NCBI GenBank assembly: GCA_000182565.2
Contig: KQ257459.1
From: Spizellomyces punctatus DAOM BR117
Lineage: Eukaryota
Direction: 5' to 3' (one strand)
DNA: 64,000 nucleotides
Part shown: in pieces, positions 42,146-47,073 of the stretch
How positions within the stretch are numbered: the first letter of the stretch is position 1
Layout of the letters: each line of letters begins with the position of its first letter
The notes under the pieces: generated by a model
What the model saw: only the letters and a program-made list of their open reading frames with translations
What the model was told of the DNA's origin: nothing
Databases searched by the model: none
Made by a program: the position numbers and the translations under genes

Positions 42146-42844
42146 TTTTGTATATGGCCTTTTAATACCACCATATTCTGCTGGAGATCCTTTTTTTGGC
42201 TATCATATTTAAAGTTTCCTATTCCCTAATGGCAAGCAACCCCATTGTCACGTGGATTTGGCCAAGGCTCCATACCTACATTTTATGGTTTAAGCAGAAA
42301 GAAAACCATGTTAGTTACTATTTCGACTGATTGCAGCGGGAACGATGTTCAAAAGAAGGACCGCTGTGAAATCAAAAATAACAGCGAAAGGAAAGAATTG
42401 CCTGCAAGCGAACGTGAGTTTACGGGATATATCTGCACCAAACTTGCGTCAGTGGTACAATTTTGCCTGTATTTGTCCGAATTGGAAAATCAAAAATCTC
42501 TCAACGGACAGGGCACTTTCCTCCAGCCGAACGGCAAAAGAGCTATTTAACAATCTCTGTTTTCGACAGCTCGCCGTCTTGGCATCAGCATCTCATCTGC
42601 GAAGAGAGGACATTAGTGTTTTGTAGTGGTGTGGTATTCCCCCCAACACAGTAACTTTTTTAGAAACGGGTGACTGTTGAATTTCATACAAGGTTGCGAC
42701 GAGTCGGTTTCCAAAGCCGTTCCTTTTTTTTTTTGGTAGGTTACTACTCTGGTTTTATCTCTGTGGTTTCTGTCTAGAAAGGAGAGTGTCCCTCATCTCT
42801 ATCTTCCTGTTTTTTGTTGGACAAATTCCCATCTCAGTTACCCA

Positions 42845-44504
42845 ATGACCATGACTGAGGGCGGCGTGCATAATTTCGAGGTCACGACCTATAATAGGCC
42901 AACATACTGTGATGCTTGTGACAAGTTCTTGTGGGGGCTTGTAAAGCAAGGTGCTCAGTGTAAAAGTAGGTATCCTAAAGTATTTAGGCATGACGCTACC
43001 GTTAAGCGCTGAAGCGGTGACTTATTCCCAATTCTCATTGCAGACTGTGGATTCAACGTCCACAAAAAGTGCCAGCACTTGGTGTCAACTGCTTGTAGTG
43101 GCGACTTCGCCCCTGGTAGATACCGGGAGCGGTCAAGCTCAGATCTGGTTCCGAACGGCACGTACATAGATGCCGGTGATTCGGAGCGTACTCTCGTCAA
43201 GCGGAGACAAAGTGACGTGGCTGGGAAAGCGATCACGGCTCCTCGCAAACCCCCAATGAAGCGGTCGGTCACCGCCGGCCCTACGGAGAAAGAAATGAGC
43301 ATTGTTCAGGAATTGATCACAAATACTGCAATGAACTCTGCGGCAATGGAGAAAGCGGCAAAGGATGCTGCTCCACCACTGAACCTCCTGACTACTACAC
43401 CCAAGAACTTTACTCGGTTTGTCGCACGCCTTGGTCCTGCTGTCAACTTCCAAGATGACATTGCAGAAGTGCTGACCTGGCAGAATCCGCCCAAGACTAT
43501 TATCGTGATGGTCACGTACATTTTTCTTTGTGAGTTCATCATCGGCATCCGCAAAAGTCATTCATATTTTGACTCACTCTTACTATTCAGGTATATACCC
43601 AACCCTCCTCATCGTTGCACCTCAAATGCTTCTCATCTACATCATCATGCGCAACTACTACAAGAAGACAAAGAAGGAAGTTGTTGGCCGCAAGACGAGC
43701 GGGAACGTCCAGTACCTCAAAAATATGCAATTCATCCAGAACTCAATGGGGATGTTCTGCGATGTTTACGAAGATGTTAAAAAGAACTCGAAGGCTCTTG
43801 ACTGGTCCAACGAAGAAGAAACGATCCGCCTTCTAAAGCTTGCCGTTGGTTCCATGTTCGGTGTCATCTTTGTCATCCGTGTCATCCCCTTCAACTACCT
43901 CATGCTCCTCGGTGGTGTAAGCGTGTTCCTACAGAACACTGCTCTCTTTCGCGCAGCCTCCACCACCCTCCCCCCGGTGTTGATAAAGAAACTTCAGAAC
44001 CAGGTCGACAACATCCGCGAGGCCATCCGGGAAGCTCGTCGAACTGGAGATGGCAGTGTTGTCACAGTTACTCTGTTTGAAAATCAGAGGTGGTGGGCTG
44101 GTGAGTAAATCTGTCCGCGTCCTGTAGATGGCAGTATTTCGATATTGAATCTTTTGTGTAATGCAGGTCTTGGATGGATTCCTCATCTTCTTCGTTCTGA
44201 ACGTGGCCCCTGGAGTGACGAAACTGGTCAGATCACACGAGCTCCCAAGGAAGTATTCGAGCTGCCAGAAGACGGTGGTGTTTGGCAATGGATGGACGAA
44301 GACTGGCGTCTGGATGTTGGCTGGGCGGATGTGGATGAACAAGGATGGCAGTATACGGACCATGTCTGGGCGAATGCCAAGAGTAAAGCTGCAATGTCGT
44401 CCCTAACTCGTCGTCGAATGTGGGTGCGTAAAATGAGACTCATCAAGCCCCAAGTACCAGCAATTGCTGGAAGTGTCCCAGTTAAGGCGATCAAAGCGCA
44501 ATAA
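42845..44504 (+). CDS. Pex23/Pex30-family peroxin (reticulon-like + DysF) with N-terminal C1 domain
   Basis: C1: HNFEVTTYNRPTYCDACDKFLWGLVKQGAQCK|DCGFNVHKKC; NFTRFVARLGP..EVLTWQNP; DysF: LFENQRWWAGLGWIP..WQWMDEDWRLD..GWQY..LTRRRMWVR. Confidence 0.85.
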
Positions 44505-45100
44505 GCCCGCACGCACCATGTGGCAAGGGTGAGTGGATTCTGGTGATGCCCCATATATGGGAGAGATTGTGGAGTGTTAGAGCTTCTGCGCGTAGACAGG
44601 CCTCATATACGAGCAACTGGCGATAGACAACCTAGACCTCATTAGATCAACTGCCAGAGGGCGTGGGAGAGTTTTTCTTGTACAAATGTTTCGGACGTTT
44701 ATATCTTAGTGCAGGGTCATCATATTTGGTAGTGGTTAAGGCGATGTTGTAGGTTTTAATATTATCGGCGCTCTTTACATTATACTTCGTAGGCGCAGAT
44801 GGTAGGCGCTCTAATAGATATGCCCTTGAATTATACAACTCCTTCCAACTTCATTTGAAATAGCCAGTCCATATTATCCTCCATATTTCTATGCAGACAG
44901 GTTCAGGCTCTTGGATCTGTCTAGGACAATTGTGGTCGACACCAAACATGGCGAAGAACAGATTCAATTTTCACACCAGTTTGAGACATGAATTTATTCT
45001 TTCCCACATACAACATAATTTCTAAACTAGAGACTGTGCACACCACCGCCTTCTTCTCTACAGGCTGCGAAGGTCGCGGTCGAATCTATCGAAAAGAAAG

Positions 45101-45660
45101 CTAAAAAATAGTGAGGGTCAGTAAAACACGCAAACATTTGAAATACGAAAACGCATCCCAAATGGAACCGTCTGCGACCACGTTCTAAGTTGCCTCCCGT
45201 CCCAGCCAGGTCCCAGCAGGTCCCCCCTACCACAGGAACCCCGTAGATACCTGGGCGTCACTATTGGGACAACCCAAACACAGTACACTCAGAGCAGTAC
45301 CCATCTACCCATTCATCGACGATCGAGCACTAGACTCCGATGTTGCAAGGCCCCAGCAGGTTCCACTACCACAAGAACTACCACACACAGGAACCCCGAA
45401 GATACCAGGAACACCTATTGACCTAGTCTCAAATCGCTCGGTGGGTTACTCTTGGCAGGTAGGACAAACCGTAAGATCCCGTAGGCTGCTAGACTCCCGC
45501 CGTAGCACCCAAGTGCCCAGTCAATACTGACAATACTGATATTGGGCCTAGCCGTCGTCCGGGTCGCAGCGAATGCCCCTCCTGTGAAGGAAGCCTTGCA
45601 ATGTCCTCCCGCCCTCACCTTAGTGTAGTATGAGTCGCGTCTTGAAGGATCGGTTGGTGA
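45101..45660 (-). ncRNA. Putative structured non-coding RNA of unknown family (~510-nt folded core 45111-45618)
   Basis: TATAAAAA about 30 nt upstream; no credible ORF; 5' and 3' ends pair over ~23 bp; nested helices rich in G-U pairs on this strand; three hairpins with a repeated module; followed by T6-AG. Confidence 0.6.
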
Positions 45661-45687
45661 GAAGGGGGGCAAGCGCGAGAGGGCCCC

Positions 45688-45695
45688 TTTTTATA
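45688..45695 (-). promoter_or_regulatory. TATA box of the putative ncRNA locus
   Basis: TATAAAAA followed ~30 nt later by a pyrimidine-rich CTTCTCA initiator-like site. Confidence 0.55.
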
Positions 45696-45884
45696 GCGCG
45701 TAATTTGCTACGCCATGCGATTGGAATTATTTGTTGTCATGGTTCCCAAAAAGTTGATATGCCCAAATTTAAATATGTCATGTGATATGTTGAATTGACT
45801 TACCTCAGCGGCCCCACATATTTGACTCACTCGGGATGAGGTCACCCTAACCTTCACCATTTTGCAGCGGAAAGTGCAACCAAG

Positions 45885-47073
45885 ATGTCTTTCATTAGCG
45901 GGCAAACTCAGTGGTTTCAAAAGGTAAGTAAGAATGCCGGAGTACGGACGAGGTGTCGACGCTCTCTGTTCCGGCTTGTCTTCACCAAGGCCGATTTGAC
46001 GGACAGGTGTTGGCACTATAGGTGATCACCCTCCCAGCAAAACCTCGAGGCTGTCATTTAGTTACGTGAGTTCGTGTTACTCTTATATTCTTGCGGAATC
46101 AGGCTAATACTAGCGCTCAGGCAAGATGTGTTGAGGTACACAGAAGTGCAACTTAAGTTCTGGGTGTTATGACTAACGACGCGTGCGACATGGCGGAAAC
46201 GGATATCAGACAGGTGTGTCAGTTGGGGAATACTAAGCGTGCCGTAGTAGCATATTTAATGTATGGTACTTTCCTTAGATTCCAGAACTCAAATCCTTCA
46301 AAGTCGGTATGGCGAACTTCTTCCGTGAGTTGAACCCTAGTGACGATCTAGTTGTCGAACTTCTTATCGATTCATCGGTATTACTAGTGCAACACACTTC
46401 CGCAGCTTTAACTATCAACGAGAATTATGGTACGTTCTATCAGGAAGCGTGGGGTTATGGTTGCTGACAGGGATACTTTTTGTGCAAAAAGATTCAGATG
46501 TAAGGTAAAGGACGTTGTGACCACGCTGTGCGGTCGGTCTTTGATGAAGATGTTGTATTAGGGTTGATATGGAAATGATGCTGAACCGATTGGCACCGGA
46601 GGAGGCACCCTACTGCCATACGGTATGTAGTACGTTCTGTACCCCTTTTTGATACGCGTGATCTAATGTGATATCTATTAGATGGAAGGTGACATAGGCT
46701 GTTATATATTGATTGGTCTTTCCGCTATATTCACACGACCACTCCGGAAACGTGTTGACAGGTTCTGATGACATGGTAAGATTATTCAAACTGGCAATCA
46801 TGGAAGCAGTATCTGCTGGCACAGACATTTGCTAATGCCCAACTCAAAAGCCGGGCCATGTGAAGTCCTCCTTGCTGGGAGTATCTTTGAACATTCCAGT
46901 CAGCAAAGGATCGCTTGCTCTTGGGTAAGCAACATACCCATGTCTTTACTGACGGGAAGAAATTGACCGCGTCGTTTATCAGAACTTGGCAAGGGATCTG
47001 GTTTTGTGAAGCGAGGAATCACGGAGGAGCAAGACAATGTGTGGTGACTATTCAAGGCGTAGCAGATAAATAG
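45885..47073 (+). CDS. yjbQ: YjbQ/UPF0047 family protein, 149 aa in 12 exons
   Basis: Exons 45885-45923, 46022-46065, 46121-46135, 46210-46213, 46279-46324, 46388-46429, 46492-46504, 46562-46622, 46682-46688, 46762-46775, 46851-46924, 46983-47073 sum to 450 nt and give WFQKVITLPAKPRGCHLVT..QHTSAALTINENYDSDVRVD..HTMEGSDDMPGHVKSSL..LGTWQGIWFCE. Confidence 0.9.

Follow-up and report, generated by a model that had tools for sequence, protein, structure and literature searches.

A Spliced Non-Coding Gene of a Chytrid Fungus with a Long Intron Whose Ends Are Predicted to Pair

Gene Organization and Transcription

Analysis of a 64-kb stretch of Spizellomyces DNA (the window) reveals a separate Pol II gene, encoded on the minus strand and flanked by two plus-strand protein genes of the chytrid, one of them a Pex24p/C1 gene. 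Proteins encoded nearby assign the window to the order Spizellomycetales. The minus-strand gene comprises a TATA box, two short non-coding exons, a single long intron and a poly(A) signal (Table 1). Both the gene and its intron are real; any function ascribed to them here is putative.

Table 1. Coordinates of the gene and of predicted elements within its intron (window positions; intron positions, p, are counted from 45618)
Feature	Position	Strand	Basis
TATA box, TATAAAAA	45688..45695	-	Sequence; ~50 nt upstream of mapped RNA 5′ end
Exon 1, 26 nt, non-coding	45619..45644	-	5′ end 45644, minor start 45641
Intron, 518 nt, U2-type, GUGAGG ... UACUGAC ... UUUUUUAG	45101..45618	-	RNA-seq joint
Predicted clasp, 5′ strand, p1-24, includes 5′ splice site	45595..45618	-	Fold
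Competing-helix arm (partner 45343-45354)	45589..45601	-	11 bp, -18.6 kcal/mol
Predicted long-range 8-bp helix, 5′ strand CUGCGACC (partner GGUCGCAG, 45172-45179)	45562..45569	-	Mean P 0.65
Hairpin unit A, longer copy of duplicated unit	45345..45409	-	Repeat families
Hairpin unit B, 18-bp irregular stem, internal duplicate of unit A	45205..45254	-	P 0.80-0.89
Predicted 13-bp hairpin CAUUUGGGAUGCG UUUU CGUAUUUCAAAUG, just inside clasp	45135..45164	-	Mean P 0.96
Predicted clasp, 3′ strand, p485-508, overlaps branch motif and the 7 nt after it	45111..45134	-	Fold
Best branch-site motif, UACUGAC (putative branch A 45118, 17 nt from 3′ splice site)	45117..45123	-	Sequence
U6 tract and AG of 3′ splice site, UUUUUUAG	45101..45108	-	Sequence; RNA-seq joint (run X19) ends here
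Exon 2, 121 nt, non-coding	44980..45100	-	Depth 58-121 and poly(A) loose end at 44980
AAUAAA poly(A) signal	44993..44998	-	13 nt upstream of poly(A) site

The transcript evidence consists of the raw RNA reads of run X19, which bears the same species label and looks like a poly(A)-based library. A joint from 45100 to 45619 skips 518 bases in 102 reads with 15 starts, all on the minus-strand side, and its ends read CT..AC on the plus strand, equivalent to GT..AG on the minus strand; the intron proposed in the initial annotation is thereby confirmed. An untemplated T16 precedes 44980 in 30 reads (agreement 1), representing the poly(A) tail of a minus-strand RNA. The RNA starts at 45644 (46 reads) or 45641 (17 reads), where reads begin to match after an untemplated prefix; this 5′ end was inferred from loose read ends, no formal start peak being listed in the run. 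First mates from the plus-strand neighbor lie on the plus strand and those from this gene on the minus strand, so that the first mate represents the RNA's own strand.

The intron is spliced out of most poly(A)+ molecules. X19 shows no sign of the excised intron itself: depth is ~4 inside the intron versus 58-121 over exon 2, a pattern that cDNA made from poly(A) RNA would give in any case. By a very rough estimate, one in five reads at the 5′ end continues into the intron, and the mean depth of 26.9 across 45571-45621, set against 102 joint reads, indicates a sizeable unspliced fraction.

No usable reading frame was found in the 147-nt spliced RNA, where each of the three frames is either closed or without a start codon, in agreement with the earlier description of the host as non-coding. 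Exon 1 contains no AUG, and the sole AUGs of the spliced RNA lie in its last 35 nt and run without a stop into the poly(A) tail; a credible reading frame is absent from the unspliced RNA as well. Exon 2 begins with a predicted 10-bp helix (CUUUCUUUUC/GAGAAGAAGG).

Splice Signals, Size, and Composition of the Intron

The signals on which the initial annotation was built are all in place on the minus strand: a donor (AAG/GUGAGG) with its first intron base at 45618, the UACUGAC motif (45123-45117), the 3′ splice site (45108-45101) and AAUAAA (44998-44993). Weaker candidates for the branch site are CUCAC (A at 45112) and UUUAC (A at 45122). An RNA 3′ end at the U6 tract, which would have pointed to Pol III, had been named among the observations that would count against the annotation. 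Reads of X19 cross the tract into exon 2, so the tract is not the transcript end in that run; it also provides the 3′ splice site with its polypyrimidine tract. The data support a genuine spliceosomal intron (GT..AG), hosted by a Pol II transcript that is polyadenylated and non-coding.

At 518 nt the intron is, as first noted, several times the local norm, the two fixed introns of the neighboring gene measuring 63 and 66 nt. The gene on the other side has a possible first intron of ~355 nt (a candidate). In being longer than the nearby introns and in the stability of its predicted fold (z -2.0 to -2.5), the intron is of introner-type size and fold. Its composition (G169 U145 C110 A94) is G/U-rich, with 54% G+C versus 44-53% in 2-kb windows of the 64 kb, and an intron-like composition is absent. 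The intron opens GU-rich (GUGAGGG), and a C-rich stretch (CUGACCCUCAC) is located at the branch site, where it falls in the lariat tail, downstream of the putative branch A.

Predicted Pairing of the Intron Ends

In the predicted fold, the first 24 and last 34 bases of the intron pair as an interrupted 21-bp clasp (P 0.83-1.0), which runs from intron base 1 to 1 nt from the putative branch A. Its segments are p1-10 with p498-508 (mean P 1.0/0.98), p13-18 with p490-495 (0.90) and p20-24 with p485-489 (0.83). Within the first, G1-G7 pair with C508-C502 at P ~1.0, and C8-G500, G9-U499 and G10-C498 follow at P 0.98, leaving A501 (45118) bulged; folding the intron by itself or within the complete pre-RNA gives the same result. 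The pairing of the 5′ splice site with the branch region around a bulged branch A, which was the core of the initial annotation, thus recurs in every fold. Opening p1-10 by force is calculated to cost 16 kcal/mol.

The predicted pairing of the intron ends is more than expected by chance. A duplex of the first 12 nt with the last 35 nt has an energy of -17.2 kcal/mol, a value matched by 0.2% of 5000 tail shuffles and by 1.2% of 9138 natural 35-nt windows; for the first 27 nt with the last 40 nt the energy is -27.9 kcal/mol, matched by 0.04% and 0.08% of shuffles (5000 each) and by 0.6% of 12792 natural windows. The 21 pairs of the clasp include five G-U pairs and no A-C pair, as expected of symmetry at the RNA rather than the DNA level, and the complementarity is present only on the transcribed strand.

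Because the clasp spans the region from base 1 to the branch A, it would have to melt before U1 and U2 could bind. The terminal helix also appears incompatible with a 2′-5′ branch: with G1 joined to A45118, the same base would need to pair with C45111 at the opposite end of the helix, so that helix and branch could not co-exist. A stable product that depended on the helix would accordingly be the debranched linear intron and not the lariat.

Overall Fold and the Competing Helix

Excess folding is modest and, in these predictions, restricted to the transcribed strand, with a z of -2.52 on the minus strand (1 of 100 shuffles as good) and -0.49 on the plus strand (32 of 100). The intron (z -2.0, 60 shuffles) has the lowest value among 19 segments, the other 18 being random 518-nt segments of the window that range from -1.83 to +2.09. 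Numerous helices in its interior are predicted at P 0.06-0.3 only. Hairpin units A and B (Table 1) form an internal duplication (repeat families D1, D3, and D4, 85-92% alike).

The initial annotation also described a second helix that would compete with the clasp and disrupt its 5′ arm. This helix exists; it occupies only ~5% of the ensemble, and shuffled sequences contain on average 5.2 helices of at least 11 bp each versus 4 in the real intron, which places it at chance level. The proposal of structure-switched splicing, which rested on this helix, is not supported.

Search for Known RNA Classes

No match to Rfam was obtained over the window at the gathering threshold; when E values up to 10 were admitted, a 1.5-kb piece gave one spurious match and the intron alone gave none. 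The single match, to the TCL6_3 lncRNA, is regarded as noise (12.8 bits versus a gathering score of 40, E 7.2, on the other strand). ARAGORN detected no tRNA-like element, and Rfam gave no match to a TPP riboswitch aptamer. Chytrid RNAs are sparsely covered by family libraries.

Features of the snoRNA classes were sought directly. For box C/D RNAs, the intron has no RUGAUGA, its sole GAUGA (45317) lies 25 nt from a CUGA, and Rfam gave no match; the CUGA that precedes the terminal stem coincides with the branch site, and what lies opposite it is GGGAGGA instead of a box C. A k-turn formed by GGGAGGA and CUGA at the clasp is possible on paper, but was rejected, having no box C and no support. 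For H/ACA RNAs, the ACA triplets of the intron are confined to positions 15, 34, and 276, none of them near the 3′ end; folding of positions 100-281 gives no hairpin-hinge-hairpin, and the duplicated hairpins are predicted to be continuous stems without pockets. These hairpins were also rejected as H/ACA candidates in their own right: an ACA follows unit A by 16 nt, yet the lower stem and the H-box hairpin fail to form, and unit B is boxless.

For other classes, consensus patterns were scanned for (CR-I, CR-V, MRP, Sm site, A and B boxes, telomere repeat). One CR-I-like match lies mid-intron (45346-45335) and lacks a P4 partner; neither CR-V nor an MRP motif was found, and the Rfam models RNaseP_nuc and RNase_MRP remained without a match when E values as high as 10 were admitted. 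None of the Sm site, A box, or B box consensuses occurs. A telomerase template would be represented by a single UAACCC (6 nt, no repeat), assuming a telomere of the TTAGGG type. A group II-like intron, suggested by the GUGAG start and the bulged A, was rejected because there is no domain V and no Rfam match, and the donor G and bulged A are 7 bp apart. A MITE was likewise rejected, the DNA-level terminal repeat being just 7 bp, with no target-site duplication seen and with G-U-rich pairing.

A Second Copy and the Search for Relatives

A second, related copy (~90% similar) is transcribed and spliced, and is seen as variant reads in X19. In this comparison, from which reads of less than 90% likeness are excluded, the second copy differs at no fewer than 10 positions within the final ~100 bases of the intron and at only 1-2 in exon 2. 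Intron variants occur at 45119 (21 of 49 reads), 45122 (21 of 48), and 45144 (16 of 39), and a diverged patch extends beyond 45180 in 29 reads; exon 2 varies at 45091 (16 of 170 reads) and 45044 (3 of 85). With more changes in the intron than in exon 2, the intron does not look the better conserved part. Fifteen loose-end reads at 45102 bear exon-1-like sequence with two differences. The second copy thus appears to share the exons, as a duplicated gene would, and does not look like the same intron in an unrelated gene.

The predicted hairpin at 45135-45164 is nearly unchanged in the second copy, the T>C change at 45144 keeping its pair as U-G and the changes at 45147 being minor. Six variant sites fall in predicted pairs. 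Three of them keep pairing (G-U to A-U, A-U to G-U, and C-G to U-G) and three break it (45119 and 45268, both well supported, and 45147, minor, with 3 of 39 reads); none of the six is a compensatory change.

No further copy of the intron is present in the 64-kb window, and metagenome contigs gave no match to a 23-base piece of the best-kept part of the intron. The last exon of the neighboring gene, used as a protein query, matched 265 stretches and yielded just one relative (L001, 36% identity), which accounts for one match among all window ORF pieces of at least 50 aa; L001 was rejected as a comparator, having no DNA likeness to the locus and no shared neighbors. A chance ORF that runs across the intron was compared with mis-called "proteins" of relatives, and none of the 13 candidates matched.

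Intronic RNA Outside the Host Transcript

Two other data sets contain sequence from the intron. A random-primed root metatranscriptome (X7) includes one 365-nt contig covering 45230-45594 with 1 mismatch, and X9 includes one 156-nt contig (45148-45303); neither shows any cover of exons or flanks, and depth is ~3. These intron-only contigs are a weak hint of a stable intronic RNA, and could also represent pre-RNA or DNA. A 147-nt spliced RNA would be lost in standard libraries, so the missing exons say little. RRNA-depleted RNA with the same species label (X23) contains next to none of the words of this stretch, which argues against a very high abundance. No lariat back-joints are listed in X19, a poly(A)-like library that would not catch lariats.

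Discussion

The reading toward which we lean, while stopping short of calling it probable, is that the intron is the main product of the gene and that the tiny exons merely host it. In such a scheme, U1 would reach the 5′ splice site co-transcriptionally, long before the 3′ partner of the clasp exists, and splicing would proceed. Upon excision and debranching, the free 5′ end might snap onto positions 485-508; the blunt, paired 5′ end would block 5′-3′ exonucleases, and trimming from the 3′ side would halt at the helix. What remained would be a linear structured RNA of ~508 nt (45618 to ~45111) that could outlive ordinary introns. Where U1 or U2 arrived late, the clasp would conceal donor and branch site alike and so explain why a fraction of the RNA retains the intron.

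A fuller form of this proposal, which we consider unlikely in its entirety, is that the intron represents a new kind of structured chytrid RNA of ~0.5 kb, spliced from a dedicated host with two mini-exons and thus made without a promoter and terminator of its own. The splice sites would set its ends, a clasp built from the donor and branch sequences would hold them together, and this clasp would also act as a brake on the intron's own splicing. If the intron is such an RNA, the expression of at least two copies would make it a small gene family. The route would be mirtron-like. Mirtrons are hairpins of ~60-100 nt that are released by splicing and debranching, with ends set by the splice sites, and are fed to Dicer; splice-site-defined ends would be common to both, and the chytrid intron differs in being a 518-nt multi-helix RNA with no sign of small-RNA production.

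Excised introns that persist as linear RNAs are known from Saccharomyces cerevisiae, where the defining feature is reported to be a distance from branch point to 3′ splice site of ~25 nt or less (bioRxiv 10.1101/426049). Together with the sisRNAs (reviewed in PMC7565381), these provide a precedent for a debranched, full-length intron that would persist in the same way, and the short distance is shared, at 17 nt from the putative branch A here. As described in that preprint, the yeast introns have no common structure, reside in protein genes, are stabilized according to growth state and are bound to parts of the spliceosome; the chytrid locus, in contrast, has a dedicated non-coding host and a predicted end-to-end helix, and accumulation of its intron is putative. 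The host itself resembles the snoRNA host genes (UHG/GAS5/SNHG, and those described in Neurospora, PMC2780460), which are likewise TATA-driven, spliced and polyadenylated, with short non-coding exons and with the intron as the longest and most structured part. In contrast to these, searches of the chytrid intron found no box C/D, H/ACA or other known family, and the candidate product is the whole ~0.5-kb intron with ends taken from the splice sites, not a bound snoRNP. The zipper stems of long yeast introns (RPS17B type; PMC12350175; PMC2536676), for which a linker limit of 85 nt was used, also join distant parts of an intron. The clasp is not a stem of that type: it begins at intron base 1 and ends beside the branch A, and by containing the GUGAGG donor it would compete with U1 and U2 and not simply bridge the intron, as zipper stems are described to do (PMC12350175).

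Several alternatives to the intron as main product have to be weighed. The clasp may act in the pre-RNA only and the intron be waste; in one version the clasp would cover both signals and determine how the RNA is divided between spliced and retained forms, and the working product would be the 147-nt poly(A) RNA or the act of transcription beside the divergent neighbor gene. This account, which we judge somewhat unlikely, draws on the sizeable unspliced fraction (mean depth 26.9 versus 102 joint reads), on exon 2, which seems better kept than the intron between the two copies, and on the 10-bp helix that exon 2 has of its own. It is opposed by the extent of the clasp, which would have to melt for U1 and U2; by the next helix (p50-57 with p440-447, P 0.65), whose linker of ~96 nt exceeds the 85-nt zipper limit; and by the 147-nt RNA, which, having no frame and belonging to no known family, is no better explained. 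It is distinctly unlikely, in our view, that the long intron is instead a young selfish or neutral insertion (introner-like, a symmetrical proliferating intron, or a recent segmental duplicate), with fold and paired ends a legacy of its spread. Fungal introner-like elements are described as canonical introns of about twice the regular length with unusually stable predicted folds (PMC3609843), and the proliferating introns of Hypoxylaceae as having their donor and branch regions within terminal inverted repeats (PMC8469720). Length, stable fold, complementary termini that include the splice signals and presence in more than one genome copy are all shared with the chytrid intron, whose second copy (~90% similar) is expressed and which contains an internal duplication. 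Those elements are, however, reported in tens to hundreds of copies in unrelated protein genes (PMC3609843, PMC8469720), whereas the one further copy here seemingly carries the exons too (the loose ends at 45102 and the variant at 45091) and no other lies in the 64-kb window. Rich in G-U and confined to the RNA strand, the pairing also differs from that of a terminal repeat at the DNA level. The host, for its part, is a dedicated unit without coding capacity that has a TATA box and a poly(A) signal to itself.

Two further explanations would assign the RNA to a familiar category. That the intron hosts a known class missed by the searches (snoRNA, RNase P, MRP, telomerase, or SRP RNA) is very improbable. 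The sparse coverage of chytrid RNAs in family libraries and the one CR-I-like match (45346-45335) speak in its favor, the latter offset by the missing P4 partner. A spliced non-coding host with tiny exons is moreover the classic layout of a snoRNA host gene, as described for a filamentous fungus (PMC2780460). Against it, Rfam is negative, RUGAUGA, CR-V, the MRP motif, the Sm site and the A and B boxes were not found, and the telomere template amounts to a single 6-nt piece. It seems hardly credible that Pol III makes a separate RNA from near 45618 to the U6 tract, overlapping the Pol II unit. The T6 run does follow directly after the terminal helix, and the ends of such an RNA would be paired, as in many Pol III RNAs. 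However, X19 reads cross the T6 run, which acts at the same time as polypyrimidine tract, and are spliced exactly at its end (although a further Pol III product could escape a library of the poly(A) type); the TATA box lies ~70 nt, not ~30 nt, from 45618; and neither an A nor a B box of the consensus type was found, nor a tRNA-like head.

Non-coding RNA genes have hardly been described in early-diverging fungi, and a search of one literature collection on Spizellomyces and lncRNA found no report of such chytrid non-coding genes. Laboratory strains exist in the group to which the organism belongs, which opens the clasp to mutational analysis. The locus makes it possible to ask how an organism with introns of ~65 nt copes with one of 518 nt. 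Should the intron turn out to be ordinary waste, it would be an example of complementarity between donor and branch site, clearly above chance, that arose without function. As a well-expressed gene in which the intron is the only sizeable structured part, it offers a clean test of whether an excised intron can be the product of a gene.

Gene Structure and Transcript Ends

The sequence contains a compact transcription unit on the minus strand, spanning 45695 to 44980; every coordinate that the initial annotation had assigned to elements of the locus proved correct. A search of public sequencing runs found part of the stretch in 10 of the 24 runs listed, and four were aligned to 44500-46000. The run X19 consists of raw RNA reads and carries the species label of the DNA run that covers the stretch best; 822 of its reads aligned, with a threshold of at least 90% likeness. 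Its sole joint, 45100 to 45619, skips 518 nt in 102 reads (15 starts) and has the ends CT..AC on the plus strand, equivalent to GT..AG on the minus strand. First mates are in plus orientation for the plus-strand neighbour gene and in minus orientation for this unit, so read orientation in X19 follows the RNA itself, which puts the unit on the minus strand. An untemplated T16 before 44980 (30 reads) is the poly(A) tail, 13 nt past AAUAAA. Matching starts at 45644 (46 reads) and 45641 (17 reads), with a few untemplated letters ahead, are read here as the RNA 5′ end; the table of start and end peaks has none.

Features of the locus and its neighbours
Feature	Position	Strand	Basis
TATAAAAA (TATA box)	45695-45688	-	sequence
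Exon 1, 26 nt	45644-45619	-	X19 read starts and joint
Intron, begins GUGAGG	45618-45101	-	X19 joint
Near heptamer CCUUCAC	45584-45590	-	
Hairpin unit, longer copy	45345-45409	-	
Hairpin unit, compact copy	45205-45254	-	
UACUGAC (branch motif)	45123-45117	-	sequence
Far heptamer CCCUCAC	45111-45117	-	
UUUUUUAG (intron 3′ end)	45108-45101	-	sequence
Exon 2, 121 nt	45100-44980	-	X19 reads
Exon 2 helix	45050-45100	-	folding
AAUAAA	44998-44993	-	sequence
Upstream neighbour gene	42740-44504	+	
Divergent neighbour	45886-46290	+	

All three frames of the spliced 147-nt RNA are closed and its AUGs all lie close to the poly(A) site; the intron-retaining form offers about 25-36 codons at most. Longer chance frames on either strand lack a start codon, and one that was searched for relatives gave none. 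The initial observation is confirmed: the reads bear out its main prediction, that a non-coding poly(A) RNA is made by splicing out an intron of 518 nt.

Minus-strand depth in X19 is 58-121 over exon 2, ~64 over the last 100 bases of the intron, 13-18 over the adjoining 100, ~4 in the interior and 27 over the first 50. Taken with the pile-ups at both RNA ends, this profile is consistent with poly(A)+ cDNA and with intron retention in, as a very rough estimate, one-fifth of the molecules. No back-joint (lariat) reads are listed in X19, poly(A)+ cDNA being uninformative on an excised, tail-less intron RNA.

The upstream gene encodes a protein joining C1 (phorbol-ester/diacylglycerol-binding) and Pex24p-type peroxisomal membrane domains, a pairing common to chytrid relatives. 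Its closest relatives (among 20 proteins at E ≤ 0.001, from 1090 candidates) come from a Spizellomyces (98% identity) and from Geranomyces, Powellomyces and Thoreauomyces (85-88%), which places the window in a chytrid of the Spizellomycetales. Two introns of this gene measure 63 and 66 nt; the 518-nt intron is thus about eight times the local size, in line with the several-fold excess first noticed. In the divergent neighbour, a first exon of 13 codons apparently leads to a GTAAGT donor at 45923, and coding seems to resume at ~46279; a first intron of ~355 nt is possible, read depth there being ~1.

Pairing of the Intron Ends

In partition-function folding, the isolated intron and the complete pre-RNA close in the same way, by a clasp between the two intron ends (position 1 being 45618). 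G1-G7 pair with C508-C502 (P 1.0) and C8-G10 with G500-C498 (P 0.98); the sole base bulged between them is A501 (45118), which is the putative branch A in the UACUGAC motif and is unpaired in both folds as the initial annotation had it. Positions 13-18 pair with 490-495 (P 0.90) and 20-24 with 485-489 (P 0.83), which brings the total to 21 pairs, including five G-U; forcing open the first ten bases costs 16 kcal/mol. Between the first 27 and the last 40 bases, the duplex energy is -27.9 kcal/mol, a value attained in 0.04% and 0.08% of 5000 shuffles of one or the other partner and in 0.6% of 12792 natural 40-nt windows. When the first 12 bases are set against the last 35, the corresponding shares are 0.2% (shuffles) and 1.2% (natural windows). 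Because of these figures, the end complementarity is real and unlikely to be of chance origin.

Directly inside the clasp, a 13-bp hairpin (P 0.96) and a long-range 8-bp helix (P 0.65) are predicted, the interior being largely poorly determined (P 0.06-0.3). Against dinucleotide shuffles, the intron has a fold z of -2.52 (1 of 100 as good; -2.0 in a separate 60-shuffle run), while 18 random 518-nt segments of the window range from -1.83 to +2.09; the opposite strand gives -0.49 (32 of 100 as good), so the excess is modest yet specific to the transcribed strand.

Two heptamers are complementary to the 5′ splice site, one 28 nt downstream and the other past the branch motif. While the RNA is being transcribed, pairing with the near heptamer could give a short-lived hairpin (-8.6 kcal/mol), which has P ~0 once the far one exists. 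The competing helix (45601-45589 with 45354-45343) from which structure-switched splicing had been proposed is present (11 bp, -18.6 kcal/mol); the switch is not borne out, since the helix occupies ~5% of the ensemble and its length occurs at shuffle frequency (a mean of 5.2 such helices per shuffled intron, against 4 in the real one), and in our view nothing here calls for a designed switch. A hairpin unit of ~50 nt is duplicated within the intron, the copies being 85-92% alike; the compact copy forms an 18-bp irregular stem (P 0.8-0.9), conceivably a Dicer-type substrate. Exon 2 opens with a 10-bp helix, CUUUCUUUUC/GAGAAGAAGG, immediately after the 3′ splice site.

A lariat would tie G1 to the 2′-O of the branch nucleotide, putatively A45118 here. 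This base adjoins C45117, the partner of G7, at one helix end, and C45111, the partner of G1, lies at the other; G1 would be needed at both, so the full helix and the branch should not co-exist. That would leave two settings for the clasp: unspliced RNA, in which it would hide both donor and branch site, and the linear intron after debranching, in which the 5′ end would be paired and a 3′ tail of 10 nt left.

A Probable Second Copy

About 40% of X19 intron reads carry consistent differences (45119, 21/49; 45122, 21/48; 45144, 16/39; 45268, 9/17; 45283, 12/22; 45600, 6/19; 45605, 6/16), and a 6-nt patch past 45180 is diverged in 29 reads; the 3′ UTR of the neighbour has a single minor variant (3/64). 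We take the variant reads to represent a probable paralogous locus, as opposed to a different allele or strain. At 45102, where their match ends, fifteen reads run on into exon-1-like sequence that departs from exon 1 at two positions, and a single variant is clear in exon 2 (45091, 16/170). The second copy thus seems to be built of the same exons and intron and to undergo splicing. To judge from these reads, it is a transcribed and apparently spliced copy, roughly 90% similar. Its branch motif reads UCCUCAC for UACUGAC, with the A at 45118 kept. Six variant sites of the second copy fall in predicted pairs; three keep the pair by a wobble change, three break it (45119 and 45268 well supported, 45147 minor at 3/39 reads), and none is compensatory. 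Its share of the reads is ~40% in the intron and only ~10% in exon 2, the pattern that poorer splicing of this copy would give. The window itself has no other copy of the locus.

Nature of the Product

Rfam gave no match over the window at gathering scores, one noise match at E up to 10 and none for the intron alone; searches found no tRNA-like element, no box C/D or H/ACA arrangement in the intron, and, with consensus patterns, nothing for CR-V, MRP, Sm, the A/B boxes or a telomere template and one isolated CR-I-like match. The layout resembles that of non-coding snoRNA host genes, although the locus lacks a snoRNA. That the locus is a Pol III gene, or belongs to a known RNA class that these searches overlooked, is very unlikely even with both readings taken together.

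A clasp relevant only to splicing of the pre-RNA is somewhat unlikely. Yeast zipper stems are described as bridging donor and branch point from minimum distances of 10 and 20 nt, respectively, which they must keep (PMC12350175), whereas the clasp contains both sites. Between the copies, 45050-45100 differs by one variant only, and exon 2 looks better conserved than the intron end, among reads at least 90% alike, which counts against the intron as product. A neutral or selfish origin is less likely still. Introner-like elements (PMC3609843) and symmetrical proliferating introns (PMC8469720) are portrayed as long, stably folded and multi-copy, in unrelated protein genes. Six variant sites of the second copy fall in predicted pairs; three keep the pair by a wobble change, three break it (45119 and 45268 well supported, 45147 minor at 3/39 reads), and none is compensatory.

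Other runs bear on the stable intronic RNA that had been suggested. X7 (a random-primed root metatranscriptome) yields one 365-nt contig (45230-45594, one mismatch) and X9 one of 156 nt (45148-45303), both entirely intronic at a depth of ~3, with exons and flanks uncovered. They fit, as a hint, an intron outlasting its exons, but at so low a depth they may also stem from DNA or pre-RNA; the absent exons are little telling, since libraries of this kind would in any case miss a spliced RNA of 147 nt. X23 (rRNA-depleted RNA, same species label) contains next to none of the stretch's words, which argues against high abundance. Human lariat-derived circular intron RNAs, which are described as GU-rich at the start and C-rich around the branch (PMC7565381), resemble this intron in sequence, but its helix should be unable to form in a lariat. 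Yeast stable linear introns are reported to have in common only a short branch-to-acceptor distance (10.1101/426049); here the putative branch A lies 17 nt from the acceptor. As to how the locus works, we tentatively suggest that the real product of the gene may be the debranched intron, closed by its clasp.
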